Shown here: piece after piece, positions 421 to 28,030 of the stretch
Layout: each line of letters starts with the position of its first letter
Numbering within the stretch: the stretch's first letter is position 1
From: Candidatus Curtissbacteria bacterium
GTDB lineage: Bacteria > Patescibacteriota > Microgenomatia > Curtissbacterales > GWA2-41-24
Direction: 5' to 3'
Length of the DNA: 64,000 nt
Assembly (NCBI GenBank): GCA_024654445.1
Contig: JANLHP010000017.1
Span: 33,009-97,008, forward strand
Made by a program: the position numbers and the translations under genes
The notes under the pieces: generated by a model
Told to the model about the DNA's origin: nothing
What the model saw: the letters and a program-made list of their open reading frames with translations, nothing else
Database searches by the model: none

Positions 421-1140
421 TTACTTTAATTTGTCTAAATTTTCGTAAGCCTTTTTAAACTTGGCTTCATCAAACTTCAACGCATAGAAGTTGTGGACTG
501 TGCCTTCGGCTGTTTTTGCATTGATCACTCCCTCTATGCTGAAGAGACAATCTGGAAAGTCTTTTTTATTACCAGTAATCAAAATTGATTTCCCGCCAGA
601 AAACATTAAGCGGCCAGTTAAATGAAGATCAACAAAGCTCGCGTTTAAGGCAACGTTATTTTGAGCATATATTTTGGAAATTAAAGGGGCGTTCTCTTGA
701 ATTTTCATGAAGATTGATTGATGATTAATGGCTGGCAAAAAGTAAGGTTTCGACAAAAAATCTTGCTTTAATCTCATTTGCTCAGGAAGAAAAACGCTTC
801 TTAAAAACTCAAATTCTGTGGTTGCGTCTATTAACAACCAAGATTGTTTCAGTACGTCATATAGTTGCAGGAAAACTTCTTCGTCGTTAAAAAGCTTACC
901 CAGAAAGTCACAGTCAAGAAAATATATTGGCTGCTTAATAAGTCTTGTAAACCTTCGCTAAAGAAGATCTTGCTTTCGAGGTTCTGGGGTTGGTTCATTC
1001 TCTTTAACGATTTTTCTATTCTTTCTTATAAGATCTAGGGGTTCTTCGAGAACACTTTGTTCGTCGTAAACCTCTTTTGTAGATGTTGTAGGATAATTAT
1101 TTTCGATATGGGGTTTAGGATTTTTAGGAAAATTTGTCAT
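421..1140 (-). pseudogene. Hypothetical protein split by one in-frame TAG (958-960); ORFs 958..1140 and 421..837 are in the same frame with about 40 open codons between TAG and the TTG used by the ORF track
   Basis: Manual translation: ...RKQDLL-TAG-RRFTRLIKQPIYFLDCDFLGKLFNDEEVFLQLYDVLKQSWLLIDATTEF...; no ATG/GTG between TAG and codon 837; function unrecognised. Confidence 0.35.
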
Positions 1141-10648: not shown

Positions 10649-10653
10649 AGTCT

Positions 10654-11625: not shown

Positions 11626-12140
11626 TTTGCTAGCTGTAAATATTTTTTATATCCTGAGTTTTCTAACTTTTTAGCTTTCTCTCCTACTGTCTTTTTCATT
11701 TTGGCTTTGTATCGAGTTAGCTTACTACTTAAATTTTTATTGTTTGTTGCCAGAATTTCGATCGCAAGGAGGGCCGCATTTGTCGAGCCATTGATGGCAA
11801 CTGTTGCAACAGGAATGCCTGGGGGCATTTGAGCTATTGATAAAAAAGAGTCGATGCCATCCATTGTTTTCGTTTTGATAGGGACGCCGATTACTGGAAG
11901 AGTAGTAATGGAAGCTGTCATTCCCGGTAGGTGGGCCGCGCCGCCCGCGCCGGCTATTATTACTTTAATGCCCTTTGATTTTGCGCTTCTTGCGAACTTG
12001 TACATTCTGTCCGGGGTTCTGTGTGCGGAAACCACGGTCAGCTCATAGCCTACGCCAAAATCATCGAGCACAGTAGCTGACTCTTTCATTATTTCCAGAT
12101 CCGAATCGCTGCCCATGATTATCGCTATTTCTTTTTTCAT
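11622..12140 (-). CDS. purE: N5-carboxyaminoimidazole ribonucleotide mutase
   Basis: [30 protein letters not shown] motifs. Confidence 0.9.
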
Positions 12141-13285: not shown

Positions 13286-14634
13286 TTTTCTTTTGCAAGT
13301 CCTATGTGGGTTTTATAATCAGAAAGTTTATCTATATCTTTGCTATTTAAATACTTTGTAATCTTCTCGTCTTTTTTTAAATTTTCAAAAAGGGGATTTG
13401 TTCCAAGCCGGTTATTGAACTCATAAGCGACAAGGGCGTGTTCGCGTAAAACTTCATGCATTTCTTGTCTGTCGGCGCCTCTTTTTGTCGATTCTAGTAA
13501 AATGAGCTCAATCGCGGCAAAGGGGCCGAAATTCTCCAAGTTTTTTTCAATATTTTTTTGGTTAATGACCAGGCCGCTTACAATTGATTTGGTTGATAAT
13601 AGAATTTCATTTGTTGCGAGAAATGCGTCAGGTAGAACTATTCTCCTGGATGCGGAATCGTCAAGGGTCCGCTCCAGTAGTGAATTTGCTGCATTGTCCC
13701 AGGAGACTTTCGTAAGAGATGCAACATATCTTGCGAGTGAACAAATTTTTTCTGCAGTTATTGGGTTTCTTTTAAATGGCATTGCGGAAGACCCTACCTG
13801 CTTCTTCCCGAATGGTTCCATCCACTCTCCAAATCCTGCGGATTGCATGATTCTTAAATCAAAAGCGAATTTGCTTGCGCTCTGCGCGATGGATGACAGC
13901 AAGCTTAAAATTAGAAAATCCAATTTTCTCGGGTATACTTGTCCGGTGACGTCAAACGCTTCAATTCCGAGTTCTGACATCACATCTTCCTCGAAATTTT
14001 TTGCCTTACTTCCAAGTAATGCTACATATGACGCATAAGTTCCAACTGCTCCTTTTGTTCCTTTGCCTTTAACGTTTTCTTTAACAAAGTTAAGTAGTTG
14101 TAGGTCGATTAAAAGGTCCTGAGCATAAAGTGTGAACCTGTAACCCAATGTTGTTGGCTCGGCTGGCTGCAGATGCGTGTAGGCCATACATACCAGCTCT
14201 TTATATTCGCTTATTTTTTTGGAAAATTCGGCAAGAGCTTGTTTTAATTCTGTTTCGATTATTTCCAAAGCAGAAAGTAGAATAATTGCATCTGCGTTGT
14301 CTTCTATGTCCTGCGATGTGGCGCCAAGATGGATTTTACCTCCACCAATTTTTGATTGAGCCGCGAATGTTTTAAGCTCGGCCATTAGATCATGTTTAAT
14401 TTCTGCTTCTATTTCGTGAGCTTTTTCTATGTCGATTTTTTGTGAATTGTCTCTTATATCCAAAAATTCTGCTTTTGTAAGAAGACCTGCTTTATGCTGA
14501 ACTCTGGCGATCGCCGTCCATACTTTGCGCCACGTTTTTCTTCTATTTATTTCGGAGAAAAGTTGCCGCATTTGGTCGCTGCCATAACGCCAGGAAAATG
14601 CGGATTGATATGTGTTGAAATTAATTTCTGTCAT
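13246..14634 (-). CDS. purB: Adenylosuccinate lyase
   Basis: Fumarate-lyase signature GSSAMPFKRNP; 462 aa; TAG stop followed after one codon by TAA. Confidence 0.9.
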   Translation of the reverse strand: MTEINFNTYQSAFSWRYGSDQMRQLFSEINRRKTWRKVWTAIARVQHKAGLLTKAEFLDIRDNSQKIDIEKAHEIEAEIKHDLMAELKTFAAQSKIGGGKIHLGATSQDIEDNADAIILLSALEIIETELKQALAEFSKKISEYKELVCMAYTHLQPAEPTTLGYRFTLYAQDLLIDLQLLNFVKENVKGKGTKGAVGTYASYVALLGSKAKNFEEDVMSELGIEAFDVTGQVYPRKLDFLILSLLSSIAQSASKFAFDLRIMQSAGFGEWMEPFGKKQVGSSAMPFKRNPITAEKICSLARYVASLTKVSWDNAANSLLERTLDDSASRRIVLPDAFLATNEILLSTKSIVSGLVINQKNIEKNLENFGPFAAIELILLESTKRGADRQEMHEVLREHALVAYEFNNRLGTNPLFENLKKDEKITKYLNSKDIDKLSDYKTHIGLAKEKCEILLQKIKKAA

Positions 14635-14646
14635 ATTTTTGATCTC

Positions 14647-14736
14647 GTCATTCTGGAGACCGAAGGTCGATAGAATCTAAACGATTGAGATCCTATTCGT
14701 AGAAAAGCTCTGCTTATCGGTCGTTTCACTCCCTCC
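14647..14736. repeat. Palindromic intergenic repeat family R2, copy A (GTCATTCTGGAG...CGATAGAATCTA...CTCCAGGATGAC)
   Basis: Terminal inverted repeats gtcattctggag / ctccaggatgac; shared core with copies at 17146, 24477, 51897, 56146. Confidence 0.8.
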
Positions 14737-14748
14737 AGGATGACAGTT

Positions 14749-15864
14749 TTACGTTGTCACCTTCTTGAGTTTCCCGCTTCTGATTGCTGTTTTTATTTCC
14801 ATCGCTACGCGCCTCCCCATACTTATGCTTTGACCAAATAAATATCCACTGTAAGGAGTCGCGAAGATTCCGGGAGAACCTGGCATCCTAGGGGAAACGT
14901 CGAAAACAACTATTTCCTTTTTGGGTGGCCCTGGAGTAATGACGGATTGCAAACTGAACGGCCCAATGACCCCTGGGGGGTACATATTTTTTGCAGCCGC
15001 AACAAATTTTTCCCCGGCTTCAAATGCCCCTTCCAGCATTGATTCGAGAGTGGTAACTGCGATGTGTCCCGCTTCTTCGTATTTGATGTCGAAAAACTGT
15101 TGATCGTTAATGGATAATTGTTCGCTGGCCGGAAGTTTAAGAAACCCTTCAAGATTTGTTTGGCGTCTGGTGTCAGTTCCGATCAACTCAAGTCGATTTA
15201 AAATAGGGGAGTAGAAAAAATTAAAATTCACTTGAACGCCCAGAACGAATTCTTCAATCGTTGCAGCGTCTAAATCTTTTTTAGTTATTTTTCCTTCTTT
15301 AATTAATATCCTGGCTCTTTGCTGATATGAAGTGGGGGAGTTAGCTAAAAAGAAGGCTCTCTCGAAGCCTCTTTGCTTTTCGGGAACTTTAACAATTACT
15401 AATCTGTCGATCTCTTGCGGATTTTGATAGATCTTGGGAAAGCGAATAACAGCAGTTTTTAAAATGTCATATTGATTTCTTTCTTCTGTTCGCTCTTCGG
15501 CGCGGAGTAAAAACCTATTTCCAAATATTGGGATTTTAAAATCCTTCTCGATTGCGTCATAATCACCGATGTAAACCTCGAATGAGCGGTGGGGGATAAA
15601 AATTGCATTTTTGGCCTTTAGAATTTTCTGGAATCGGGGGTCTAAAATATCTTTAAACTTGTCGACATATAAAACTTCGTCCACACAGCCCGTAGGTCCT
15701 GAGCTTGCCGAAGGGCTTCTGCTAGTTGTCTTAAAGTACTTTGCGTAAGTCTTGTCTCTCCCCTCCTCTACTATTACAATAGTTGCCAACCCTTCGTCTT
15801 TAGCTCCTCGGCAGACGTCTAAAGCGCTATGGCTTCCTATGACTGCTACCGCTACCCTAGCCAT
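14749..15864 (-). CDS. PurP-like ATP-grasp protein (archaeal-type 5-formaminoimidazole-4-carboxamide ribonucleotide synthetase paralog, divergent)
   Basis: N-terminus VAVIGSHSALDV; IPHRSFEVYIG, FFYSP, SMGRRVAMEIK - same family as the ORF at 17216 but more divergent. Confidence 0.6.
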   Translation of the reverse strand: MARVAVAVIGSHSALDVCRGAKDEGLATIVIVEEGRDKTYAKYFKTTSRSPSASSGPTGCVDEVLYVDKFKDILDPRFQKILKAKNAIFIPHRSFEVYIGDYDAIEKDFKIPIFGNRFLLRAEERTEERNQYDILKTAVIRFPKIYQNPQEIDRLVIVKVPEKQRGFERAFFLANSPTSYQQRARILIKEGKITKKDLDAATIEEFVLGVQVNFNFFYSPILNRLELIGTDTRRQTNLEGFLKLPASEQLSINDQQFFDIKYEEAGHIAVTTLESMLEGAFEAGEKFVAAAKNMYPPGVIGPFSLQSVITPGPPKKEIVVFDVSPRMPGSPGIFATPYSGYLFGQSISMGRRVAMEIKTAIRSGKLKKVTT

Positions 15865-17137
15865 AGATTACCTCGTTTCTTGCGGGTCCGACACCGATAA
15901 AATCAACCGGCACACCCACAAATTCTTCAATCTTCTGGATATATTTTTTGGCGTTTTTGGGAAGGTCGGCAAATTTCCTGACTTTGGTGATGTCTTCTTG
16001 CCATCCCGGCAGAGTTTGATAAACCGGTTTACATTTTTCAAGTTTGTCCGCGTCGCCCGGAATGTATCCTACTTTTTTACCGTTTAGCAAGTAGCCTATG
16101 CAAATTTTAATTTCGTCAAATTCGGTTAAGATATCTAATTTTGTTACGGCAAGATGTTTTATGTTATTTACTTCACAAGCTGCTTTTAATAGGACGAGGT
16201 CCAGCCATCCAGGGTCTCTGACGCGGCCCGACGTTGTTCCCACTTCCCCACCCTTTTCTATAATTATTTTTCTTTCTTTGCCCTTTATTATTGTCGGCAT
16301 TGGGCCCGCGCCTACTCTTGTCGTATAGGCTTTTGTTATACCAATTGGGTGGTTAATAACAGAAGGGTTTAAATCGAACGACCGTAGAATCCCAACTAGC
16401 CCCGGGTTGGAAGAAGTAACGTACGGGTACGTACCCGCGTCGATATCAAGAAAATATCCTTGGGCGCCTTCGAATAGAACGTTTTGCTTGTTTTTAATCG
16501 CTTCATTTAATATTTCGTTGGTATCAGCAACATAAGGCTTAATGATTTTTGCGTAGTCGGTAAATTTTTGGTGAATTTCGCGGTAAGAAAGTTTTAGGTT
16601 GAAAAACTTATTTTGAACCGTGAGTTCTTCTTTTAATTTTTTAGCAAAATCGGCACTTACCAAGTCTTTAACCCGAAGACCAACTCTTTCGGTTCTGTCG
16701 GCGTATGCTGGGCCCACTCCCCTTTTCAGCGTTCCTAATTTGGAACTTCTCATTTGTTCTCGAAGCGCGTCGCGGAGCTTATGCCACGGCATAACTAAAG
16801 TTGCCCTATGATCGATTCTTAAATTTTTCCAAGAAACGCCAGCAGCTCTAAGTTGCTCCAATTCGTCGTCGATAAGCGATTCCAAATCGACCAAGACGTT
16901 TTTGCCAACTAAACATTTTGTTTTTGGGTTAAATATTCCGGAGGGCATTATATGAAGAGCAAAAGTGCCAAATTCGTTTTTGATCGTATGGCCTGTATTT
17001 GATCCGCCGTTAAATCTGGCAACAACGGCTGCCCTTTGTCCTAAATCGTCAATAAGCCGTCCTTTACCCGAGTCTCCCCAATCGACTCCGATTACGGCAG
17101 CAACACCTGACCAGTTTTTTAAATTATTACTTTTCAC
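15857..17137 (-). CDS. purA: Adenylosuccinate synthetase
   Basis: GVDWGDSGKGRLID P-loop, GGSNTGHTI, conserved C-terminus. Confidence 0.95.
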   Translation of the reverse strand: MKSNNLKNWSGVAAVIGVDWGDSGKGRLIDDLGQRAAVVARFNGGSNTGHTIKNEFGTFALHIMPSGIFNPKTKCLVGKNVLVDLESLIDDELEQLRAAGVSWKNLRIDHRATLVMPWHKLRDALREQMRSSKLGTLKRGVGPAYADRTERVGLRVKDLVSADFAKKLKEELTVQNKFFNLKLSYREIHQKFTDYAKIIKPYVADTNEILNEAIKNKQNVLFEGAQGYFLDIDAGTYPYVTSSNPGLVGILRSFDLNPSVINHPIGITKAYTTRVGAGPMPTIIKGKERKIIIEKGGEVGTTSGRVRDPGWLDLVLLKAACEVNNIKHLAVTKLDILTEFDEIKICIGYLLNGKKVGYIPGDADKLEKCKPVYQTLPGWQEDITKVRKFADLPKNAKKYIQKIEEFVGVPVDFIGVGPARNEVIYG

Positions 17138-17145
17138 TAAATTTT

Positions 17146-17208
17146 GTCATTCTGGAGACTGAAGGTCGATAGAATCTATTTGACCCTATCGCTTCGCTCC
17201 AGGGTGAC
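17146..17208. repeat. R2 palindromic repeat, copy B
   Basis: gtcattctggagactgaaggtcgatagaatcta...cgctccagggtgacgg. Confidence 0.8.
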
Positions 17209-17215
17209 GGTAATA

Positions 17216-18229
17216 TTAATCTAAAATTTTGTTTAACTTTTTTGTTCTAATCGCGTCTTTTATTTCCATTGCGATTCTTCTGCCTGTTGAAACGGGTTTA
17301 TCCCAGTAAAGGGCAGCGTATGGTGAACCATTTATAAATAAGTTAGTTCCAGCAACTATTCGGCAGGAGATTTCTATTATAGAAAATTTTTGCTCCGGAG
17401 TGATAATCGTCTCAAGACAAAATGGGCCCCATATTCCCTTTTTCATTAATTTTTGCGAAGTTGCCACAACTCTTTCCCCCATTTCGAACGCTTCTGCAAG
17501 AAGCGACTCTCGCAGAGTTAACGGTGAGTTTCCAACGACGACGAACGACGGTTCTATTCCAAGACCTGTTTGGTTTTGGACTGGGATTCGCCCTAGAGAG
17601 TCTACGTTAGACTCGTATCTTTTGTCTATTGATAAAATCTCGAGTTCTTTTGATATTGGGGAATAAAAATAATGAATATAAAGAGGAACGCCGATGACGT
17701 ACTCTTGGACGATAAACCTTTGTGGTTTAAACCCTTTTAGACGCCTTAGTAACTCTTTTTCGTTTTTTGCAAAAAAGTACCCTTCGCCTCCCGCTGCCCC
17801 AAAAGCTTTAACAATTACCGGGCTGTCTATCTTGTCTCCTTTTTTATAACGCTTTGGGACTGGAATGTCTGATTGTATTAGCCACTCTCTTTGCATTTTG
17901 CGGTCTGATTCCCAGTCTAAAACTTCTTTATTGCCAAAATAAGGAACTTTCATTTTTTTGTTTTCGTCTATACCCAGATAAGCGACAAAAGATCCGTGAG
18001 GAATTATGATGCAGTTTTCTTTTATTAAAGTTTTTTCTACTTGTGGAAATTCCGCGTATGTGGGGATTTCTATTATCTTGTCGATGAAGTTAAAGCGTTT
18101 GTAGAGGTCTAGTCTGTTTGAGGTCGCGACCAGAACTGTTTTGAATTTTTCGTCGTGTGCGCCTTTTAAAATTTGGAGAGCAGAGTGGGAACCGAGAGTT
18201 GCTATTTTGTAGGATTTTCGTCCCGCCAT
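17216..18229 (-). CDS. purP: 5-formaminoimidazole-4-carboxamide-1-beta-D-ribofuranosyl 5'-monophosphate synthetase (archaeal-type, formate/ATP-dependent)
   Basis: Near-collinear to recalled archaeal PurP: IATLGSHSALQILKGA, YKRF, IPHGSFVAY, VPYFGN, LDWESDR, IHYFYSP, DKRYESN, GPFCLE, GRRIAMEIK. Confidence 0.8.
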   Translation of the reverse strand: MAGRKSYKIATLGSHSALQILKGAHDEKFKTVLVATSNRLDLYKRFNFIDKIIEIPTYAEFPQVEKTLIKENCIIIPHGSFVAYLGIDENKKMKVPYFGNKEVLDWESDRKMQREWLIQSDIPVPKRYKKGDKIDSPVIVKAFGAAGGEGYFFAKNEKELLRRLKGFKPQRFIVQEYVIGVPLYIHYFYSPISKELEILSIDKRYESNVDSLGRIPVQNQTGLGIEPSFVVVGNSPLTLRESLLAEAFEMGERVVATSQKLMKKGIWGPFCLETIITPEQKFSIIEISCRIVAGTNLFINGSPYAALYWDKPVSTGRRIAMEIKDAIRTKKLNKILD

Positions 18230-18253
18230 CTTTGTATTCTACAGACTCTGAGG

Positions 18254-19735
18254 CTAAATTGCAAAAAAGGCGGCGGCTAGAACAAGGAGGATATAAAGCA
18301 GAGACCAGGGGATAATTTTTTTAATGATGTGCCTTTCCTTTCCTTTTAAGTCGACTGCTGTTTGGGCGGCAATAATGTTTGGGATTGAAATCATATTTCC
18401 TGCTGTTGCGCCTAGAAGCTGCAATGAAAGGATAATGGAAATATTTATACCTGCTTGTTCTGCGGCATGAGCTTGTGCAGGGCCGAAAAGTAAGTTTGAG
18501 ACCGTTGCGCTTCCCGCGATAAATGCGCCGAATGCTCCTATAAATGGCGACAAAAGCGGCAGTAGGGGTGTCTCTAAGTTTTTAAAGGCTTGGGTCGCTA
18601 GCTGGCTGTTGACCATTACTTGCATTAGCCCCACAACTAAAAAAATTATTGTTGCAATATAGGGTATTTTGACGAAAGCTTCTTTTGCGCCTTTAAAGAC
18701 GTCTCTTAAAGTTAAGCTTGATACAGCAATAATGACGACTGCCGATATCAAAAATATAGTTCCGGGATTAAAAAGGACAAAAGTATGAGAAATGTTCTCG
18801 TTAATTTCTGCCGTTAACCTCAGGGGTATAAGTTTCGCAATTATCAAGAGTGAAACAAGTAAAGCGTAAGGCATTAAAGCTTTAGTCGGCGAAATCCTCA
18901 CTTTGGGTTCTGATGGATCTTTAATTTTGAAGTCATTATTGAATTTAAACAGTCCTAATTTTAGGGCTAAAAGAACAACCGCCGTTCCGATGGTGGCTCC
19001 CGCAATTGATGGAAATTCCAACCCCAGATATAAACCAAAATAATAAGGAATAACAAAACAGAGTCCTGAAAATATGGCAAAGGGCGAAGCTTTTATAAAA
19101 AATTGCCACACTGGTTTCTTTAATGCATAAGTAAGAATTGCCAGTACCATAAGAGGCACAAAAACTCCAACTATTGCTCCTAACTCAACAGTGTTTTGGG
19201 CTATTTCTTGCATATTAAAATTATGAAAACCTATTTTAATTGGAGTTCCTACCGCACCGAAAGTAACAGGTGCGCTGTTTGCAACTAGTGCGATAACCAC
19301 TGCCCAAATCGGTTTTATTCCTGTTCTTAATAAAAGATACGCAACGATTAGTGCCGGGATTCCAAAGCCGGCTGTGCTTTCCAGAAACGCTCCAAAAAAC
19401 CACGCCAATAAAATTGTTTGTACTCGGATGTCTGGTGATATTTTATGCAGGTATGTTTCGAGGGAAGAAATTACGTCCGCTTTTTGCATTAAATATAAAA
19501 AGGTGAGAGCACCGAAAACAATTAACACAATGTCGAGCGAGACAAAAGCGCCTTTTAAGAGGCTTGAAAGAATAACTTGATAGGACGTATGTAGATAAAA
19601 CGTGCTTAAGATTATGGCAGCAAACAAACTTATGAGTGCTGATATTTTTAGCTTGTTTTTGAAGAGTAAAAGGCCACCTACAAGTATTAATATCGGCAGA
19701 AGCGACAAAAAAGTTTGCACAAAATATTTTAACAA
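18254..19735 (-). CDS. L-lactate permease family (LctP) transporter
   Basis: WFFGAFLESTAGFGIPALIVAYLL...ANSAPVTFGAVGTPI and C-terminal LLFGPAQAHAAEQAGI...GNMISIPNIIAA align to the E. coli LldP conserved blocks. Confidence 0.75.
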   Translation of the reverse strand: MLKYFVQTFLSLLPILILVGGLLLFKNKLKISALISLFAAIILSTFYLHTSYQVILSSLLKGAFVSLDIVLIVFGALTFLYLMQKADVISSLETYLHKISPDIRVQTILLAWFFGAFLESTAGFGIPALIVAYLLLRTGIKPIWAVVIALVANSAPVTFGAVGTPIKIGFHNFNMQEIAQNTVELGAIVGVFVPLMVLAILTYALKKPVWQFFIKASPFAIFSGLCFVIPYYFGLYLGLEFPSIAGATIGTAVVLLALKLGLFKFNNDFKIKDPSEPKVRISPTKALMPYALLVSLLIIAKLIPLRLTAEINENISHTFVLFNPGTIFLISAVVIIAVSSLTLRDVFKGAKEAFVKIPYIATIIFLVVGLMQVMVNSQLATQAFKNLETPLLPLLSPFIGAFGAFIAGSATVSNLLFGPAQAHAAEQAGINISIILSLQLLGATAGNMISIPNIIAAQTAVDLKGKERHIIKKIIPWSLLYILLVLAAAFFAI

Positions 19736-19825
19736 ATAATTATTACGAAGTTAACCGAGGGTTGCGATTTTGTAACTTTTTCGTCCCGCCGCCCGAAATT
19801 AAACTTGCAAGTCTTAATCTTTCGC

Positions 19826-20944
19826 TCATCTTAAATCTAGTGATTCGGATTTGAATGTAAGATTTTTGGGCAGAATTTGGACTTCGCGCGGGCCCTTTTT
19901 GACATAGCCTGCATTGTAAATTTTTAACTTTTGAGACTTTGCTGCAGTTTCTACTTTATTCAAATCTTTTGGATTTATAAAAATACCGAAGCCTGCTCCC
20001 ATATTAAAATTTCCATACATATCTTTCTCGCTTATTTGACCTTGCTCTTGCATGAACGTGAATTCTTCCTGAGGAGTTGGGATCATTTCGATTACATATG
20101 ATAATTTTTTTGGATGGCGCATAATTTTTCGCCAACCGTGTCCGGTAATGTTGACCATGTAATGAATGTCTACTTTTTGATCGAACAATTCGTCGATAAA
20201 TTTAGCATATATAATCGTTGGTCTTCTTAGGGCTTCGCCAAACATTTTGCCGCTTGGCATAGGTGTTGCTAGACCTTGAGGTAATTTTTTCGCAATTCTT
20301 CTTGCGAGCGTTAAACCGTTGGCGTGAATGCCTGACGATTCCAACAGGATTATTAAATCCCCAGCTCCTAATTTTTCCCCAAGCACAAGTCTTGATTTTG
20401 GTCTGATTACGCCAGTGGCAGCACCTGCAAGTTCGATTGTGTTTTTGTGAACGATATTGGTTAAGGTGGGCGTCTCTCCCCCGCCCCAGGTTGCCCCAGC
20501 CAGATTACAAGCACGCTTCCATCCTAAGAGCAATTCTCGGACTCTTTTTTTATCACTGAACCAGGAAGAATGACCCACCGCAAAATATGCATTAATGACT
20601 TCGGGCTTTGCGCCAACGGTAATTAAATCGTTTACTATCATTGCTACTGTGTCCTGCGAAATTACACTGTAGTAACTCTTACCGGTAATTTTGATCATCT
20701 CATCTTCTACAATATTTTTAGTACCGAGTCCTTCTATAACAAATGCGCGGTAATGATCGCCGCAATCGTAGACATAGGATGATTCTCCTCTTGATTCGGG
20801 TACTTCTTTTTCTTTTAGTCTCAGGAGGTTTTTGGCAGTAGATTTTGCCAGTTTTTGCGCACTCTTTTTGACAGGATCCATTGCTCTATAAGAGACTCCT
20901 GATTTTTCGTAGATGTCTCGCGGTGTCATATTTGTTTTTGCCAT
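19826..20944 (-). CDS. purM: Phosphoribosylformylglycinamidine cyclo-ligase (AIR synthetase), with ~60-aa divergent N-terminal extension
   Basis: EGLGTK, DTVAMIVNDLITVGAKP, GGETPTL, LIILLESSGIHANGLTLARR, ITGHGW, MYGNFNMGAGF collinear with E. coli PurM blocks; TGA stop. Confidence 0.75.
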   Translation of the reverse strand: MAKTNMTPRDIYEKSGVSYRAMDPVKKSAQKLAKSTAKNLLRLKEKEVPESRGESSYVYDCGDHYRAFVIEGLGTKNIVEDEMIKITGKSYYSVISQDTVAMIVNDLITVGAKPEVINAYFAVGHSSWFSDKKRVRELLLGWKRACNLAGATWGGGETPTLTNIVHKNTIELAGAATGVIRPKSRLVLGEKLGAGDLIILLESSGIHANGLTLARRIAKKLPQGLATPMPSGKMFGEALRRPTIIYAKFIDELFDQKVDIHYMVNITGHGWRKIMRHPKKLSYVIEMIPTPQEEFTFMQEQGQISEKDMYGNFNMGAGFGIFINPKDLNKVETAAKSQKLKIYNAGYVKKGPREVQILPKNLTFKSESLDLR

Positions 20945-21030
20945 GATTGTCCGAAATTGCCAAGACTTTTTGATGCGAGTTTATTGGCAAATTCTGCTGA
21001 CCATTTTAACGATTTGTCTTTTAAAATCCC

Positions 21031-21861
21031 CTATAGAAATCCCGCGGCAAACGTATCCCCTGCCCCCGTTGTATCTACGATATTGTTCACTTTATGTCTG
21101 CCCGTTAAGAACTGCTTTTTGTTTGTGGTAATTAAAGCGCCTTTTTTGGAAAGAGTGCAAACTACAATTTTTGGACCAAATTTAAGTAAATAATTGCTTC
21201 CTGCTCTTGGAGGTTTTCCGGTTAATTTTTTAAGTTCATGCTCATTTAAGAAAATAATATCGCTCTTTTTAATAATGGGTTTAATTTTAGTTTTAGCTCT
21301 TTGAATATAAAAGCCGCTAGGATTAAAACTAATCATTGGGCCTTTTACGCTTTCTAAAAAATCTAGGGTTTTATTAATACCTTTTTCTACATCGACAACA
21401 AGTGGCGTAATGTGAACAATCTTTGCTTTGTTGATAAAGTTGTAATCTAAACTTGAAAAAAAGTCTCTTTCGTGTTTATTTTCTTCTGACAAGAATGTTC
21501 TTTGTTTGCCTACTCTTGTTAGGATACAAGGGCACATCGGTGTTTTGCCGGCTCGTAAGATTTTTGTTTTTTCTAGATTGATATTTTTTATCCAATAATC
21601 GCCGTCTTCATCTTTGCCAATTACTCCAAGATATGCGCTTTTAGTTTTTAACGTGTATAGCGCTGATAGTGTATTTGGCGCAATTCCCCCAGGACTTTTG
21701 GTTGTGGGTTTAAGATGTTTTAAGATCTCTTCCCTGGTTATTTTCTTTTCGGAGAAAAGGAAATCGTCTTCGGGGTTTAAGTTGATGCTTTTTAAAAAGT
21801 CGTTATTTGTTTCGAAAAAATAATCGGTGTAGGCAGATCCGATTCCAACTATGTCTGCCAT
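21031..21861 (-). CDS. PfkB-family carbohydrate/nucleoside kinase (ribokinase/adenosine kinase-like); ORF ends at in-frame TAG 21031-21033 immediately after DTTGAGDTFAAGFL; homologous C-terminal helix continues in frame to 20926
   Basis: Gly-rich N-terminus, anion-hole motif DTTGAGD; readthrough frame encodes GILKDKSLKWSAEFANKLASKSLGNFGQS matching the conserved PfkB C-terminus (..EAIRFAxAAAAxxVxxxGAQ). Confidence 0.7.
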   Translation of the reverse strand: MADIVGIGSAYTDYFFETNNDFLKSINLNPEDDFLFSEKKITREEILKHLKPTTKSPGGIAPNTLSALYTLKTKSAYLGVIGKDEDGDYWIKNINLEKTKILRAGKTPMCPCILTRVGKQRTFLSEENKHERDFFSSLDYNFINKAKIVHITPLVVDVEKGINKTLDFLESVKGPMISFNPSGFYIQRAKTKIKPIIKKSDIIFLNEHELKKLTGKPPRAGSNYLLKFGPKIVVCTLSKKGALITTNKKQFLTGRHKVNNIVDTTGAGDTFAAGFL

Positions 21862-21882
21862 ATTTTTTTGGGGGCAGGAGAA

Positions 21883-22254
21883 CTAATCACTACTATTAGT
21901 TGTGAAAGCATATGCTATGACATTTGAGTGGCTAACTCTTACCATTAAGTCTGGGTTGTCTCTATGATGAATAACGACCATTTCCTCTCCTGTTACTACT
22001 ACTCTGTCGGGCTCAACATATTCCCAATTTGCAAAAGTTTTGTCGGGCGATTTAACAACAACAAGATGATCAAAGTAGCCACCAAAAAGTATGCCGACTT
22101 TGCGGTCTATTTGGTTACAAATAACTGTGATTTCTGCAGGGGAAAATATGTCTAGTACTTTTATCTCGCCTCTGTTCAAAGTGAAATCTCTTTCAGCTCT
22201 GTTTTGACCGATGAGTCTGTCTACTTCTACAGGGGCCATATTAATTTTTAACAA
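21883..22254 (-). CDS. Hypothetical protein (123 aa)
   Basis: Intact ORF, co-directional, tight spacing; no recognisable motif. Confidence 0.4.
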   Translation of the reverse strand: MLKINMAPVEVDRLIGQNRAERDFTLNRGEIKVLDIFSPAEITVICNQIDRKVGILFGGYFDHLVVVKSPDKTFANWEYVEPDRVVVTGEEMVVIHHRDNPDLMVRVSHSNVIAYAFTTNSSD

Positions 22255-22284
22255 AAGGTAGACTTATCTGTCAATAGAGGGAAA

Positions 22285-22485
22285 CTACTTTTCGTCTTTA
22301 AGGTAGAGGCCGAGGACGCCGAGGACCCCCGCGACGAGGAAGAGCTGAGTTGGCGCAAGAGACGTGAAATCGTTTTGGGTTACCGCTTCATACGCCGCCA
22401 CCATTATGACAACAACTGTTGCCGCGATTAAAAATTGCGACAGCGGATTATTTTTAGACCTCTTTGGAAGTAGCTTTTTTGCCAT
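22285..22485 (-). CDS. Small single-pass/2-TM membrane protein (66 aa)
   Basis: Basic N-terminus then hydrophobic helices; weak. Confidence 0.3.
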   Translation of the reverse strand: MAKKLLPKRSKNNPLSQFLIAATVVVIMVAAYEAVTQNDFTSLAPTQLFLVAGVLGVLGLYLKDEK

Positions 22486-22561
22486 ACAACATTATAATTG
22501 CATCTTTTTGCTTCTTAGTCAATCGGTTTGAGTAAATAGTCTAAATTTGGTAAAATACGTA

Positions 22562-23062
22562 GACTTTTGGGAAGAAGGGCGATTAGGTTTGGAAGAGGGG
22601 CAAGCCCCCCTTCCAGCTTTCCCCCACTCGGGGACGGCTGGTCGATAATTTTTTATAATTCCAGATCAGGAAAGTCCGGACAGCAGGAATCAAGGAACGG
22701 ATTTTTGATCCGACGCGTAAGCGCTAGTTTCTTGAGTACCGAAAGGGAAAAAGGACGGGTCCTGAATTGACAGGATTCGAGAGCCACAGTGACGAAAAGA
22801 TCCTAAGTCGTAAGATATGGATTGAAAGTGAAACGGTCTCCTTCGTTCTGCTTTTGCAGAACTTCGGCGGACTAAAGGCAATCCTTCTTGCTGCAACTCA
22901 GAATTGAGCCGCAATTACCATGATTCCGGGAGGCTCTAAGTAGAGGCATTCTGCATAAAGCAGAACGGAGTGACATTTACATCACTTCGAGACAGATGAT
23001 CGCACAAACCCCACGTCGCTAAAGCTATGAGGGGTGAAACAGAATCCGGCTTACTCTCTTCC
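22562..23062 (+). ncRNA. rnpB: RNase P RNA (bacterial type A), ~500 nt with insertions
   Basis: P4 5' strand AGGAAAGUCCGGAC at 22667-22680 and P4 3' strand ACAGAAUCCGGCUUA at 23038-23053; P1/P2 pairing CUUUUGGGAAGAAG (22564-77) with CUCUUCCCAAAAG (23049-61); overlapping ORFs 22567..22770(+) and 22690..22914(-) are spurious. Confidence 0.8.
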
Positions 23063-23068
23063 CAAAAG

Positions 23069-24097
23069 TTAAACTTCTTGAAGTTCTTCTTCCAGTTTTC
23101 TGTCTTCGACTAAAAACTCTTTAAAAATAATTCTTCCAGCGACAAGCAGCGGGATTGCTAGAAATGCTCCCCCGACTCCTGCTAATTTTGCCCCAATCAA
23201 AAGCGCGATTATAACAACAGTCGGCTGAAGACCTACGGCTCTGGACATAACCATTGGTACGATAAGATGATTTTCCAGCTGTTGAACCACCAGGAAAAGC
23301 GCGGCAACGCCAAGACCGACGACTGGAGAAATTGTGAGACCAACTAAGATTGCAGGAACGGCTGCAATAATTGGACCAATAATTGGGATTATTTCCAAAA
23401 TTCCGGTAACGAGCGCAAGGGGCAGCGCGTATGGAATCCCCAGAACCCTCAAGCCAATATAAGTTATTACTCCGACAATTATGGAAAGAGTTAATTGTCC
23501 CCTAACCCATTTACCTAAGCCGCCTTCAACTTTTGCGATTACGTCTTTTACTTTCTTTTCTTGTCTACCGGAAAACGGGGAAGCGATAAGTCTGACGACG
23601 CTTTTCCACTCCAAGAGAAGGTAGAAGGTAAACACAAGGAAAGTTACTATTAAAAATATGCTAGAAAGTATTGCGCTCGAGATTGCGATTAAATTGCCGC
23701 CTATGGCACGAGCTTGAGATGCAACTACGCTGGAAACATTTTCTACCGGTATTTTGTTAAATATAAGGAAGTCATTGATTGTGCCAGTTATTTGTGGAAG
23801 CTTTGTAACGAATTCTGTCGTTTGAGATATTAATGGTGGGAAGATAATTCCGATTGCAAAAGAAATCAATGCAATAAGTATTACGTAAACGATTAATACA
23901 GAAAGGGCTCTCGGGACCCTTCTTTGTGTCAGGTATTCAACCGGGCCAAGAAGAGCAGAGAGAAGAATCAATGATATAAAGATGAGGATAATTATTTCTC
24001 TTATTTGGACAAGAAACCAAAGTCCGATTAATAAACTTACGGCGAAAATTATTGTTTTATACGAAATCTCGACTCTAACGGTTCTGTCGTCTTTCAT
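23069..24097 (-). CDS. AI-2E family transporter (PerM/YhhT, UPF0118)
   Basis: 8 TM helices; conserved GLxxxxPxLxA-like C-terminal region; 342 aa. Confidence 0.7.
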   Translation of the reverse strand: MKDDRTVRVEISYKTIIFAVSLLIGLWFLVQIREIIILIFISLILLSALLGPVEYLTQRRVPRALSVLIVYVILIALISFAIGIIFPPLISQTTEFVTKLPQITGTINDFLIFNKIPVENVSSVVASQARAIGGNLIAISSAILSSIFLIVTFLVFTFYLLLEWKSVVRLIASPFSGRQEKKVKDVIAKVEGGLGKWVRGQLTLSIIVGVITYIGLRVLGIPYALPLALVTGILEIIPIIGPIIAAVPAILVGLTISPVVGLGVAALFLVVQQLENHLIVPMVMSRAVGLQPTVVIIALLIGAKLAGVGGAFLAIPLLVAGRIIFKEFLVEDRKLEEELQEV

Positions 24098-25114
24098 CTA
24101 TTTGAAGTATATATCAGCTTTGTGTGTGATCGCAATTTTTTCATCTAGCTTATTTTCCCAACCTTTTTGACTGATATCGAAGAGTTCGATTGATTTAAAC
24201 TTATTAAACCAGGTTTTTTGTCGGCGGATAAGGCGGTGTAGGTCTCCTTTTGCAAGGTCGACTGATTCTTCTTTCGACGTTTTCCCTAAAATATAGTCTG
24301 CAAGACGCCTGTATTCCAAACCAAGCGAGTTAATCCATTCAGGGCTAATCCCGCCTTTTATTAGACTTTGAATTTCTTCAATCATTCCATGCTCAAGACG
24401 AGCCTTGAAGGATGCGTCGGCTCTTTTAAAAAGAAAATTATTAGGCGCGGTGAGACCGATGATGAGCACTTTTTCTGTCATCCTGGAGCGTAGTGGAACG
24501 GAGCGATGGGATCTAGATTCTATCGTGGTCGATGCCACTCCAGAATGACGACTTTTGCTTGGCGTCTCTATGGATACCTCTATAGCGCGGATGAGCCGGC
24601 GTGGATTTTTTCTGTCGGATTCGTTCATGGACTTTGCCTTTTGAGGATTTAGTTTTCCTAACTTTAGATAAAGCTCCTGCCTTGATAACTTTTCCAGTTT
24701 TGCGCGTAGTTTTTGGTCAGCTTTTATTCCTAGCGTGTCCATACCGTCCACAAGTGCTTTGATATAAAAACCTGTTCCCCCAACAACAATTGGCATTTTT
24801 TTCAGTTCAGTGATCTGAATTACTGAACTATTGGCGAATTTTAAAAAGTCTGCGACCGTGAATTGTTTGCCAGGTTCTATTAGATCGAAACCGCGGATTT
24901 TTACTCCGTCAACGATCCAATAACCGTTGTGTTTTTCAACCTTAGATTTAAAGCTTACTTTACCGGTTCCGATATCTAGACCTTTATAAACCTGTCGGGA
25001 GTCGGCAGAGATTAATTCACCGTTTGCACATTTGGCTAGTTTTATTCCAAGATCAGTTTTGCCGGTTGCCGTCGGACCATATAGTACCAACATCGTAGAT
25101 TTGCCAGTTTTCAT
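24098..25114 (-). CDS. miaA: tRNA dimethylallyltransferase; carries an in-frame 74-nt insertion of the R2 palindromic repeat
   Basis: P-loop GPTATGKT, SADSRQVYKGLDIGTGK; repeat at 24477-24550 translated as RHSGVASTTIESRSHRSVPLRSRMT between RAIEVSIETPSKS and EKVLIIGLTAPNN. Confidence 0.85.
   Translation of the reverse strand: MKTGKSTMLVLYGPTATGKTDLGIKLAKCANGELISADSRQVYKGLDIGTGKVSFKSKVEKHNGYWIVDGVKIRGFDLIEPGKQFTVADFLKFANSSVIQITELKKMPIVVGGTGFYIKALVDGMDTLGIKADQKLRAKLEKLSRQELYLKLGKLNPQKAKSMNESDRKNPRRLIRAIEVSIETPSKSRHSGVASTTIESRSHRSVPLRSRMTEKVLIIGLTAPNNFLFKRADASFKARLEHGMIEEIQSLIKGGISPEWINSLGLEYRRLADYILGKTSKEESVDLAKGDLHRLIRRQKTWFNKFKSIELFDISQKGWENKLDEKIAITHKADIYFK
24477..24550. repeat. R2 palindromic repeat, copy C (inverted relative to A/B), inside the miaA CDS in frame
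   Basis: gtcatcctggagcg...tagattctatcg...ctccagaatgacg. Confidence 0.8.
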
Positions 25115-26696
25115 CTAAATGAATTTGTGGGTACTTTTTAAAATAGCTTTCATTAATACTAAAGAATGTTTTTTCATGAGGACCAATTGTAACGTATTTT
25201 ATCTTGTATTTTGAAATTAATTTTTCCGCTTCCTCTCCCCCAAGATATATTGTTCTGATGTCTTGTGCCCTTTCTTGGTAAGGCAATCCGTGGGTCCAGG
25301 CCCATCCGTGAAAGCCCAATAGTGTGGTGCGGCCACTTAACGCTGGAATTGGGTGATTGTGGACGGGAGCGGTTACAAAGATTGCATCTTTGTCTGTCAG
25401 ATTTTTAGTTAAAGATGCAATTTCTAAATCATTGTTCGAAAAAATTTGGTAACTGCTTACGGGAGTAAAGGTGCGGAAGATATCTATTGACCCCGCCAGT
25501 ATTGTGAATATAACGATAATAGCTCCAAGTATTTTTCTGTTAACATTTTCTGAAAAGAAATTTTCGTGCAAGAAGAGTGCGACGACGATGCATGATGCGA
25601 AAAACCAATAGAGCATTATCTTGCTGTTATCAAATTCCCAGGGCTGGAATATAAAAATGTTAGATAAGAAAAATATAAATAGAAATGGTAGATAAAGCAA
25701 AAATAGGTTTTTGTACTTTTTATAAAGCCATATAAGAGACCATATTAGAAGTGGCGCAAAAAGTCCTAAATTTTTAAGCCAAAACCAGATTATATTCTCT
25801 GCGCTCGTCCAACCGGGGTCTATTCTTATAAACTTTAGGGCATTACTGCTTTGGGAAATTGACGAGAAGAGTACAAATGACAGAATTGCTGATACAACTG
25901 CGAAGGTTGCCCAGCTTTGAATAAGTTTAGATTTCTTCTTCGCTGTCAAAATGGAGGCCGGCGCAAAGAAAAGCGAAAGGAGAAAAATTACGAAAAGACT
26001 GTGGGCCTGAACTATTGGTAAAGCTCCTGTTATTAAACCCGCTTGAGCAAAGGGTATGAGTTTAACTTTTTTATGTCCTTTAAAAAGCAACAGTAAAACA
26101 ACTAGAGTCATTGGAAATGCAATTAAGAATCCTCTTTGTGGAAGAAAGTAGGCTAGCGTAGTGTTTATAAACCAGTATCCACTTTCTTTAATATCGGTGT
26201 ATTCACCCGGTAAATTGCTTAAAAATTGGAGCGGTAACTGGGCAGATTTTAAGAAATCCGAAAAGAAATAGTAAAAACCGAATCCGCCGTTAACCAAGAA
26301 AAGAAGCAACGTTAAAAATACGGTACCTTCACTTTTGGTGAATTTATTAATAAAAAGTCGTGAGGTGAAGATTAAAACGATACCTGCTGTGAAAGTTGTT
26401 ATAAAAAGTGCAAAGTCTATACTTGATATTTGTGCGATTTTGCTCGTTATAAGATCTGCAAAAATGGGATAGTTAGGTTTCGTGCTTGCAAAAATAGGGC
26501 TTGATATTGTCAGGCTATTCGTCTCTAGGAATCTATTAATAAGGCCAAGATGAAAAACTAAATCGCCGTAAAGGTTAACCTGACCTACATACCAACCATC
26601 GCTTCTTATTTGGAGCATCTGTCTTGCCAGGTGAAAAAACAGAAATCCAAAGAAAATAAATGTGAATGCTGGGAAAATCTGAATCGATTTTCGCAT
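25053..26696 (-). CDS. Large polytopic membrane protein, putative GT-C-type glycosyltransferase with C-terminal periplasmic domain
   Basis: 547 aa, >12 TM helices, soluble C-terminal domain; family not firmly assigned; start overlaps miaA end. Confidence 0.4.
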   Translation of the reverse strand: MRKSIQIFPAFTFIFFGFLFFHLARQMLQIRSDGWYVGQVNLYGDLVFHLGLINRFLETNSLTISSPIFASTKPNYPIFADLITSKIAQISSIDFALFITTFTAGIVLIFTSRLFINKFTKSEGTVFLTLLLFLVNGGFGFYYFFSDFLKSAQLPLQFLSNLPGEYTDIKESGYWFINTTLAYFLPQRGFLIAFPMTLVVLLLLFKGHKKVKLIPFAQAGLITGALPIVQAHSLFVIFLLSLFFAPASILTAKKKSKLIQSWATFAVVSAILSFVLFSSISQSSNALKFIRIDPGWTSAENIIWFWLKNLGLFAPLLIWSLIWLYKKYKNLFLLYLPFLFIFFLSNIFIFQPWEFDNSKIMLYWFFASCIVVALFLHENFFSENVNRKILGAIIVIFTILAGSIDIFRTFTPVSSYQIFSNNDLEIASLTKNLTDKDAIFVTAPVHNHPIPALSGRTTLLGFHGWAWTHGLPYQERAQDIRTIYLGGEEAEKLISKYKIKYVTIGPHEKTFFSINESYFKKYPQIHLDENWQIYDVGTIWSDGNRQN

Positions 26697-28030
26697 ACCA
26701 CATATTATATACTCGAAAGATGAACAAAACTTTTCTCTACGTCTTGATTTTCTTAACCTTAGTTTCCTTTGTAATTCGTATCTACCGATTTACATCTCCA
26801 GGCAAATATTACTTCGACGAGGTGTACCACGTTGTAACAGCAAAGGCATATTCTCAAAATAACCCGGCTGCTTATGATCCGTTTGCACCACCACCCGAAC
26901 AAGGCACTGCTTACGATTGGCTTCATCCTCCTTTGGCTAAATTAATACAAGCCGGGTCTATTAAGGTTTTGGGTGATAATCCTGTGGGCTGGAGACTTCC
27001 AAGTGTAATTTTTGGGACAGCAATTATCCCGCTAACTTTTATCTTGGCCACCCTGCTTTTTGGGCCCCTGGTCGGACTTTTTGCAGCTGCTGTGATTTCG
27101 TTTGAAAATTTAACTTTTGTGATGTCGAGAATTACGATGAACGATGTTTTTGTGGTGGTCTTTATCTTGTTGTCTTTAATATTCGCTGCATTCTACGCAA
27201 AGGCAAGTAAGTCGATGCATATAATTTTAAGCAGCATATTTTTGGGACTGGCAATTTCTTCAAAGTGGTCGGGTGTTTACGCCATTCCTTTAGTTTTTGG
27301 ATATTTGTCTTACATTTCTTTCAAGAAAAGGCGGTGGGACACAAAACTTCTTTTAACGCTACTTTTGCCCCCTCTTATATATCTTTTAAGTTATGGACAG
27401 TTCTGGTTGCAAGGGCATTCGGTCCGCCAGTTTATCGATCTTCATAAGCAAATCTTGTGGTATCAGAACCGCCACGATTTAGTTCATTCTTATGGTACTA
27501 CCCCAATTTACTGCGTACCGGAAGGTCTTGGTGGTCAGAAGAGTTTATGCCCTTGGGTTTTTGATGCCCGCGGGGTTTATTTCTCTTACCATGAACAAGG
27601 CGGAAAAGCCGAATACATCTATGCGCTCGGAAATCCCTTAATTTTTTGGGCCGGGTTCGTTGCTTCTTTCTTTTTAATCGGAAGGTTGGTTGAAAAGAGG
27701 GATAAGCAAAGCTTTTCTGTGAATAAGCAAAGCTTTGCTTCGAAAAAAAAGCTCGCCCTTGTACTTGCTGCTTACTTTATTTTTTGGGTGCCCTGGATAT
27801 TTAGCCCAAGAATAATGTTTTTGTATCACTACCTTCCAGCAATTCCATTTCTTTCAATCGCTCTTGGGATAGTTCTTTCTGATATTTATAAAACACGTCG
27901 AAGTTATATTGCCGTATTTGCGTTAGTTGCATTTGCTTTGGTTTTCTTCTATCTATACCCAATTTCCTCAGGATATCCAATCGAGATCAAATCGATTGGT
28001 AGGTATATGTGGTTTGATAGCTGGCGATAG
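26666..28030 (+). CDS. Glycosyltransferase family 39 (PMT-like, phospholipid-carrier-dependent)
   Basis: N-terminal YFDEVYHVVTAKAY...DPF...HPPLAKL loop motif typical of GT39; 454 aa polytopic; TAG stop. Confidence 0.6.
   Translation: MLGKSESIFAYHILYTRKMNKTFLYVLIFLTLVSFVIRIYRFTSPGKYYFDEVYHVVTAKAYSQNNPAAYDPFAPPPEQGTAYDWLHPPLAKLIQAGSIKVLGDNPVGWRLPSVIFGTAIIPLTFILATLLFGPLVGLFAAAVISFENLTFVMSRITMNDVFVVVFILLSLIFAAFYAKASKSMHIILSSIFLGLAISSKWSGVYAIPLVFGYLSYISFKKRRWDTKLLLTLLLPPLIYLLSYGQFWLQGHSVRQFIDLHKQILWYQNRHDLVHSYGTTPIYCVPEGLGGQKSLCPWVFDARGVYFSYHEQGGKAEYIYALGNPLIFWAGFVASFFLIGRLVEKRDKQSFSVNKQSFASKKKLALVLAAYFIFWVPWIFSPRIMFLYHYLPAIPFLSIALGIVLSDIYKTRRSYIAVFALVAFALVFFYLYPISSGYPIEIKSIGRYMWFDSWR

Follow-up and report, generated by a model that had tools for sequence, protein, structure and literature searches.

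The PfkB-family kinase gene located directly upstream of purM in the window (the entire 64,000-nt stretch of Candidatus Curtissbacteria DNA that was analysed) is interrupted by an in-frame TAG, which probably originated as a recent, lineage-specific nonsense mutation and left a truncated gene or young pseudogene, at best an allele with crippled function. The kinase ORF begins with an ATG at position 21861 on the minus strand, comprises 276 codons and ends in ...VDTTGAGDTFAAGFL-TAG, and its frame continues beyond the stop as GILKDKSLKWSAEFANKLASKSLGNFGQSWQKQI-TGA, with the TGA found at 20928..20926 (Table 1). The base change is most likely a true mutation and not an assembly error, and the stop most likely reflects an ordinary gene-inactivating mutation and no change in stop-codon decoding.

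Table 1 Features surrounding the two TAG codons discussed in the text, in positions of the window.
Feature	Position	Strand	Details
PfkB-family kinase gene, 5' part	21861..21031	-	276 codons and premature TAG
Premature TAG of the kinase	21033..21031	-	Tyr codon in most orthologues
C-terminal kinase segment, stranded	21030..20926	-	34 codons and TGA
purM-like AIR synthase gene	20944..19826	-	Pfam AIRS and AIRS_C; MCR4324535.1
Small ORF, 60 aa	1140..958	-	Own stop TAG 960..958; antitoxin position; MCR4324517.1
PIN-domain (VapC-like) ORF	957..421	-	In frame with the small ORF

The preliminary description of this DNA had stated that the kinase ORF stops at the TAG while its homology goes on in the same frame, and the coordinates, Pfam and tblastn all agree with this. 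When the TAG was read through, the product matched Pfam PF00294 with 126.8 bits (cut-off 25.8), in an alignment that crosses the TAG and covers residues 39–304 of 311 (HMM positions 19–294 of 302), and tblastn with the closest orthologue as query gave a single HSP spanning the stop (21861..20938, 69.6% identity). The complete PfkB domain is thus not found in one uninterrupted ORF, as the TAG follows residue 276. The N-terminal GG (G58-G59) and the C-terminal DTTGAGD with the catalytic Asp (residues 263–269) are both encoded upstream of the stop and are invariant in alignment A1. In the same alignment the tail beyond the TAG is conserved against 19 orthologues, with A296, S299 and G304 invariant. 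The tail is the ancestral kinase C-terminus, as its earlier alignment to the PfkB C-terminus had implied. An AlphaFold model of the read-through kinase placed two helices in the tail (residues 285–299 and 304–310), with pLDDT values of 88–98 up to residue 310. As these helices are modelled with confidence and the tail falls inside the Pfam domain, the lost segment is part of the fold; in ribokinase and adenosine kinase structures this C-terminal segment contributes to the nucleotide pocket and to the monovalent-cation site, and it presumably does so here. The truncated 276-aa kinase is therefore most likely inactive. No in-frame ATG, GTG or TTG was found in the 34 codons after the TAG, and the tail is thus not independently translatable.

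The downstream purM gene is intact and could be aligned with its orthologue in the related locus L081 over residues 6–366. Its ATG at 20944 lies inside the kinase tail, so that the extended kinase ORF overlaps purM by 19 nt. The overlap of the terminal TGA with the first 19 nt of purM, likewise pointed out initially, has counterparts of 4, 8 and 22 nt in relatives and hence represents an ancestral arrangement.

The full-length orthologues listed (302–324 aa) all have a sense codon at the TAG column, mostly encoding Tyr and otherwise Phe, His, Asn or Cys, which bears out the proposal that the TAG occupies a sense-codon site; among the listed sequences, only the kinase of the window has a stop at this column. 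The solved distant homologues 4e3a and 3ubo have GFLYG or GFLFG at the site. In a DNA alignment of six relatives (A3) the codon is TAT in three (L081, L082 and L089), L090 has TAC, and the remaining two have TTT (Phe) and CAT (His), respectively. One T>G change converts the TAT of the closest relatives into TAG, and with TAT or TAC in four of the six relatives the stop is one mutational step from the ancestral codon. We accordingly propose a simple course of events, in which a recent, lineage-specific TAT (Tyr) to TAG substitution would have occurred in the kinase gene, ribosomes would halt at the TAG through normal stop recognition, the product would be a 276-aa protein without the final ~35 residues of the PfkB fold, and the 34 codons past the TAG would persist as untranslated relics. 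No second lesion was found in the tail or elsewhere in the kinase gene, which implies that the event is very recent; a sequence error or rescue by suppression would look alike. No other kinase more than 71% identical was found in a database of 5.8 billion sequences, the next-closest relative being 71% identical, and among the matches listed from a profile search of genome contigs with the kinase alignment there were distant PfkB relatives of 23–36% identity and no Curtissbacteria.

The gene neighbourhood is consistent with decay. Orthologous kinases are encoded within purine-biosynthesis clusters and are paired with a HAD-like protein; the HAD-like gene (411–418 aa) abuts the kinase start on the upstream side in all six relatives compared. 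In the window, tblastn detected no HAD-like partner gene, and the genome appears to have lost it from this position, which fits gene decay or the loss of a two-gene module. The region 21862-23068, considered as a possible decayed copy of the 411-aa partner gene, showed no similarity to it by tblastn; besides an RNase P RNA and a conserved 66-aa ORF, it contains a 123-aa ORF that had no match in Pfam or NCBIfam. The segment 9131-26570 is otherwise collinear with L081, and the other 12 shared genes could be aligned over their full or nearly full length with no frameshifts.

This last result also bears on whether the TAG could be an artefact of assembly, sequencing or consensus building, or else a minority allele that became fixed in the MAG consensus, in which case the organism would have TAT or TAC at the site and a full-length 311-aa kinase. 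Such an artefact would account for a kinase gene that is otherwise perfect, with a fully conserved tail and a purM overlap like that of relatives, and for a TAG that is only one base from the ancestral codon. No independent assembly confirming the base was found: an exact search of JGI metagenome contigs with a 33-nt stretch around the TAG, its third base left free, gave no match. NCBI contains the identical 276-aa protein, encoded on a 268,154-bp contig of a Candidatus Curtissbacteria MAG. However, collinearity with a relative extends over the surrounding 17 kb and the other shared genes are (nearly) full length without frameshifts, which indicates a low error rate, and the loss of the adjacent partner gene is a genuine difference in structure that fits decay. 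Substitution errors in short-read consensus sequences are rare, and pseudogenes typically make up a few percent of bacterial genes. We therefore regard an artefact as unlikely.

The preliminary description had gone further and read the homology past the stop, together with the purM overlap, as arguing against genuine termination at the TAG. The use of TAG across the window does not support this reading, as the codon works as a terminator for other conserved genes. TAG terminates 11 of the 69 ORFs examined, ten of them besides the kinase, including the conserved genes purA, purB and miaA and those encoding RecX and a protein mannosyltransferase, where the stops coincide with the ends of orthologues or Pfam models. 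The TAG of purA follows HMM position 416 of 416 by two residues, the PMT_4TMC match reaches position 202 of 202 one residue before the TAG, and RecX and purB likewise have TAG at their HMM ends; purA, purB and miaA also match their L081 orthologues from end to end. One of the ten encodes 131 aa and is located in the ribosomal-protein cluster. Among about 69 ORFs, the kinase is the only conserved gene interrupted by TAG, the other three same-frame TAG junctions being genuine gene boundaries; miaA and the AI-2E transporter gene are separate genes in relatives. It was correctly noted that TAG ends purB and the GT39 (PMT-type) gene with further stops 1 and 10 codons on, but the suggestion that this reflects the backup stops of a leaky UAG did not hold, as the spacing equals chance expectation. 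Measured to the next in-frame stop, the median distance was 21 codons for TAG, 12 for TAA and 6 for TGA, and no excess of nearby backup stops after TAG was found once same-frame neighbouring genes had been removed (Mann-Whitney p = 0.51).

These data weigh on partial UAG suppression, by a supF-like tRNA-Tyr(CUA), another suppressor tRNA or a weak RF1, which would yield some full-length kinase as well as a VapB-like/VapC-like fusion from a second locus. Its attraction is that two ORFs in 64 kb are followed, in frame behind a TAG, by conserved coding sequence that lacks a canonical start, and that the TAG of the kinase replaces a Tyr codon, so that a Tyr-inserting suppressor would restore the ancestral residue exactly. 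Against this, the ten other TAG-ended ORFs stop at orthologue or HMM ends, backup stops are not in excess, and the only tRNA in the window is Pro-GGG, with none carrying a CUA anticodon. The kinase stop is also not conserved in any of the listed full-length orthologues, whereas programmed readthrough would be expected to show a conserved stop, and no stimulatory RNA structure was found 3' of the TAG (a 131-nt fold of -22.2 kcal/mol compared with -19.75 ± 3.06 for shuffled sequences, z = -0.80). Literature searches on either topic, UAG suppression or pseudogenes, for Curtissbacteria and for the Candidate Phyla Radiation turned up nothing specific. In a screen of 250,000 genomes, Pfam domains aligned to in-frame stops were attributed to pseudogenes in the cases examined, and the known bacterial stop reassignments are all reported to concern UGA, UAG reassignment in cellular bacteria not being known (PMC8629427). 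Partial suppression consequently seems improbable, and the specific version in which an amber suppressor such as tRNA-Tyr(CUA) acts alongside RF1, making UAG ambiguous, restoring the Tyr of the kinase and producing a VapB-VapC fusion, is extremely improbable. Were suppression to occur, it would be a rare instance in nature of a cellular bacterium decoding UAG ambiguously, and the first natural partial UAG suppression in a bacterium of the Candidate Phyla Radiation.

The second locus invoked for suppression is the TAG at 958-960, which had been put forward as another interruption and after which the frame stays open for 178 codons. Comparison with homologous loci shows that it is instead the genuine boundary between the two genes of a VapBC-like cassette. 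The small 60-aa ORF ending at this TAG, annotated by NCBI as a separate gene (MCR4324517.1), shares 34–36% identity with 58-aa ORFs that precede a 191-aa gene in L085 and L086/L087 and that end in TAG followed by TAA, and the TAG is thus the normal stop of the small gene. In the homologous cassettes the small ORF and the PIN gene are kept in separate frames, the PIN homologues (186–191 aa) beginning with an ATG and sharing 20 nt with the small ORF. With the small ORF closed by TAG and TAA and the PIN gene in another frame, a fusion is not the ancestral design, which counts further against suppression. The PIN ORF of the window has no canonical start ahead of the conserved DxD motif, the first being a TTG at 837, downstream of the invariant D76 and D78. 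A start at ATG 998 in another frame, combined with a 1-nt indel, gave only a weak match (E = 0.82, 7/23 identities), and some homologues agree just as well with the in-frame reading. Neither Pfam and PADLOC nor a PDB profile search gave anything useful on the family of the PIN protein, which was identified by fold search alone: the model of the homologue P0122 (pLDDT 90.5) matched VapC/PIN structures in Foldseek with a probability of 1.00 and a target-normalised TM-score of up to 0.73, at E-values of only about 2e-3.

It could also be argued that the kinase is functional in its shortened 276-aa form and the TAG its real stop, as the GG and DTTGAGD motifs both precede it and the NCBI annotation treats the protein as intact. 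No listed full-length orthologue is so short, however, and the missing segment is conserved, confidently modelled and located within the Pfam domain, which makes this reading highly improbable. The chance that UAG is reassigned throughout the genome, whether to Gln (as recoded phages do) or to pyrrolysine, is practically nil, and at the scale of the window it is refuted: the in-frame TAG itself is all that speaks for it, whereas the conserved TAG-closed genes end exactly where their orthologues do, in-frame TAG does not recur in conserved genes, the Tyr, Phe, His, Asn or Cys found at the site suits neither Gln nor Pyl, and the window, with its ribosomal-protein cluster, recA and purine genes, is core chromosome and not phage. 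From the causes listed in the preliminary description, a nonsense mutation or an assembly error is thus favoured, while readthrough or suppression and local reassignment are unsupported. Homology past a stop does not by itself indicate recoding, which calls for a conserved stop, genome-wide recurrence or a suppressor tRNA.

For annotation, the preferred reading of a nonsense mutation means that MCR4324536.1, deposited as an intact 276-aa 'carbohydrate kinase family protein' with no pseudogene flag, most likely represents a truncated allele or a pseudogene, with consequences for reconstructing the purine and nucleoside metabolism of this small-genome bacterium.

When compared with known systems, the cassette at the second TAG resembles VapBC type II toxin-antitoxin loci in that a small ORF precedes a PIN-fold gene, with a 20-nt overlap in homologous loci, but the pair in the window has no Pfam or PADLOC match, the PIN protein carries a C-terminal extension of ~50 residues, and the PIN ORF lacks a canonical start and is in frame with the small ORF. 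What the kinase has in common with amber suppression and UAG recoding (supE/supF, UAG-recoded phages, pyrrolysine) is an in-frame UAG at a conserved sense position that a suppressor could rescue; unlike in those systems, UAG is an ordinary terminator in the window, one conserved gene is affected, no tRNA-CUA is encoded there and the kinase stop is not conserved among orthologues. The kinase itself belongs with the ribokinase-family PfkB sugar and nucleoside kinases (PF00294), given its strong Pfam match, GG and DTxGAGD motifs and confident ribokinase-like model. Its best, weak NCBIfam matches are to ribose-1-phosphate kinase and ribokinase, and its best solved relatives are rhizobial sugar or adenosine kinases (4e3a, 3ubo); it differs from the family in that the ORF lacks the last ~35 domain residues and reaches no NCBIfam equivalog cut-off. 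With respect to the nonsense-mutation pseudogenes of bacterial genomes and MAGs, the kinase is unusual in having no second lesion, as expected of a very young pseudogene or an artefact, and in having raised no flag during annotation. It resembles them in its lone premature stop, a single base away from the sense codon of orthologues, in a conserved downstream remnant that is untranslatable alone and in the absence of a functionally linked neighbour from its conserved position.

The PfkB-family kinase ORF ends after 276 codons in ...VDTTGAGDTFAAGFL-TAG, and the same frame stays open for 34 further codons (GILKDKSLKWSAEFANKLASKSLGNFGQSWQKQI) until it meets a TGA (20928..20926), so that the extended frame overlaps the purM-like gene by 19 nt. 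This layout, as well as the homology beyond the TAG, agrees with the preliminary description: the Pfam PfkB match spans the stop (residues 39–304 of 311, HMM 19–294 of 302, 126.8 bits), and tblastn with the closest orthologue as query returned one HSP across it (21861..20938, 69.6% identity). Scanning the 34 codons after the TAG revealed no in-frame start codon, and separate translation of the tail is thus impossible. The 276-aa product exactly matches MCR4324536.1, annotated as a "carbohydrate kinase family protein" in a Candidatus Curtissbacteria MAG (NUV69_ locus tags, 268,154-bp contig), and its neighbors are also exact matches (MCR4324535.1, purM-like; MCR4324532.1, purA).

Among the matches listed, every full-length orthologue (302–324 aa) has a sense codon at the TAG position, as had been expected from the sequence, and the kinase is the only short protein besides three partial hits (176–230 aa). 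In an alignment of 20 sequences the corresponding column was mostly Tyr, otherwise Phe, His, Asn or Cys, and was flanked by invariant AAGFL and G; the tail was well conserved, with A296, S299 and G304 invariant. Distant solved homologs carry GFLYG or GFLFG at the same site. At the DNA level, the loci of the six relatives examined (Curtissbacteria and Levybacteria, with kinases 47–71% identical) have TAT (L081, L082 and L089), TAC (L090), TTT (L083) or CAT (L088), and a single third-position T-to-G change in TAT yields TAG. The kinase stop and purM start overlap by 8, 4 and 22 nt in the three nearest relatives, which identifies the TGA at 20926 as the ancestral kinase stop. Among the explanations initially proposed, we favor a recent nonsense mutation, which is the probable one: one T-to-G change would have turned a TAT (Tyr) codon into TAG, truncating the kinase at 276 aa and leaving a truncated gene or young pseudogene.

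An error in the assembly or its consensus could also place a TAG here, as could a minority allele, but the region 9131–26570 is collinear with L081 and the other 12 shared genes are (nearly) full-length without frameshift, the kinase being the only lesioned one. The assembly thus appears accurate, and we consider such an artefact unlikely. The window is core chromosome, with recA, RNase Y and one cluster each of ribosomal-protein and purine-biosynthesis genes.

In all six relatives, a gene encoding 411–418 aa lies directly upstream of the kinase and abuts or overlaps its start; the protein belongs to no Pfam family and gives weak HAD/SerB-like matches. This partner gene was not found in the window, nor were purN, purQ and purSL, its flanks in L081; here three other features take up this space: a conserved small ORF of 66 aa, an ORF of 123 aa and an RNase P RNA. 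Loss of the partner together with the kinase mutation is consistent with decay of a two-gene module, although the partner could be located elsewhere in the genome. In the relatives the pair sits within purine-biosynthesis clusters, e.g. purN-purD-[418 aa]-[PfkB]-purL-purQ-purM in L089, and no purF was seen in these clusters; the pair may perform an uncharacterized step supplying purine synthesis.

The RNase P RNA lies upstream of the kinase locus in what seemed to be an empty gap; it escaped the default Rfam scan, since its score of 45.2 bits (E = 1.2e-12) is below the gathering score of 100. The 66-aa ORF shares 67% identity with a counterpart in the distant relative L089, which marks it as a real conserved small gene; it has no family assignment, and its product, judged from the sequence, looks like a membrane protein. 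The 123-aa ORF, without matches in Pfam and NCBIfam searches, ends in a TAG 21 nt ahead of the kinase ATG and in the same frame. Elsewhere in the purine cluster, the ATP-grasp genes share 74% and 82% identity with their L081 orthologues and approximately 31% with each other; the orthologues of both have DUF1246/DUF1297 domains, which we tentatively assign to the archaeal PurP type. No PurH-type gene was found among the annotated genes of the cluster. Compared to L081, the L-lactate permease gene and purK are extra at their positions, and the 148-aa and AHSA1 genes 3' of purM in L081 are absent. Three PMT/GT39-family genes occur within 64 kb of this small-genome bacterium.

Coordinates of the features discussed (window positions unless a locus is named)
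Feature	Position	Strand	Remarks
Kinase, 5' part	21861..21031	-	276-codon ORF from ATG, Pfam PfkB
Kinase TAG	21033..21031	-	in-frame stop
purM-like gene	ATG 20944	-	start inside kinase tail
Partner gene	L081:8760-9995, L082:2245-3480, L083:4985-6220, L088:3763-5001, L089:3745-5001, L090:3756-4991		upstream of kinase
123-aa ORF	21883-22254	-	position of missing partner gene
66-aa ORF	22285-22485	-	67% identity to 66-aa ORF adjoining miaA, L089 1510-1710
RNase P RNA, class A, divergent, bacterial	22628-23069	+	full model 1-367, large insertions
ATP-grasp genes (two paralogs)	14749-15864, 17216-18229	-	flank purA; L081 orthologues
L-lactate permease gene	18254-19735	-	between purM and first ATP-grasp (PurP-like) gene
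purK	12137-13285	-	between purE and purB
PMT/GT39-family glycosyltransferase genes (three)	2056-3504, 3525-5000, 26666-28030	+
GtrA-family gene	6265-6879
60-aa ORF	1140..958	-	homology to 58-aa ORFs
VapBC-like cassette (60-aa ORF and PIN-fold ORF)	421-1140	-	homologs and fold match

The tests made within the window all argue against an altered reading of UAG. TAG ends 11 of the 69 ORFs examined (TAA 37, TGA 21). In purA, HMM position 416 of 416 is reached two residues ahead of the TAG, and in the PMT_4TMC gene position 202 of 202 one residue ahead; the ends of RecX and purB coincide with those of their Pfam models, and purA, purB and miaA, all TAG-terminated, align end-to-end with their L081 orthologues. 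The "backup stops" proposed in the preliminary description were not supported, as the next in-frame stop is no nearer after TAG (median 21 codons) than after TAA (12) or TGA (6; Mann–Whitney p = 0.51). A tRNA search of the window found Pro-GGG only, and a 131-nt segment spanning the kinase TAG and extending beyond it folded no better than shuffled sequences (z = -0.80). Partial suppression of UAG in the organism thus finds no support within the window, and we regard it as improbable.

Among TAGs in real coding frames, only four are bordered by a long open frame on both sides. Two are ordinary junctions, the next gene's own ATG following 0 or 7 codons on, one of them joining miaA and an AI-2E transporter gene that are separate in relatives; the others are the kinase TAG and that at 958–960, which had been put forward as a second interrupted gene. 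That interpretation was rejected: the 60-aa ORF ending there is homologous to separate 58-aa ORFs preceding a 186–191-aa gene in other uncultured bacteria, where the small ORF likewise ends in TAG, immediately followed by TAA, and the larger gene begins at an ATG inside the small ORF but in another frame, giving an overlap of 20 nt. The larger protein was modeled confidently (pLDDT 90.5), and the model matched VapC/PIN-domain toxins (Foldseek probability 1.00, target-normalized TM-score up to 0.73), and based on this fold the two ORFs look like a VapBC-type cassette, a family without a Pfam or PADLOC model. The PIN-fold ORF has a C-terminal extension of approximately 50 residues. In the window it shares the frame of the small ORF, and no ATG, GTG or TTG precedes its conserved DxD motif; it might start at ATT or ATA, or a 1-nt indel might lie past the other-frame ATG at 998, near TATATTTTCTTGAC, around 905–925. 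Neither reading requires UAG readthrough.

The read-through kinase was confidently modeled as ribokinase-like (pLDDT 92.4, pTM 0.92), with the TAG directly past the helix bearing the GAGD motif (267–275), and residues 277–311 forming helices 285–299 and 304–310 (pLDDT 88–98 up to residue 310). In ribokinases and adenosine kinases, the C-terminal segment supplies part of both the nucleotide pocket and the site for the monovalent cation, and the truncated kinase is therefore probably inactive; that the 276-aa protein is a functional short enzyme seems very improbable.

Genome-wide reassignment of UAG is refuted at the scale of the window, where TAG is a working stop and TAG-ended genes finish at model or orthologue ends, and its probability is negligible. 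The kinase TAG is an ordinary finding whose practical use lies in annotation correction. According to a screen of >250,000 genomes, the known bacterial stop reassignments all concern UGA; in that screen, Pfam domains aligned to in-frame stops were ascribed to pseudogenes in the cases examined (PMC8629427).
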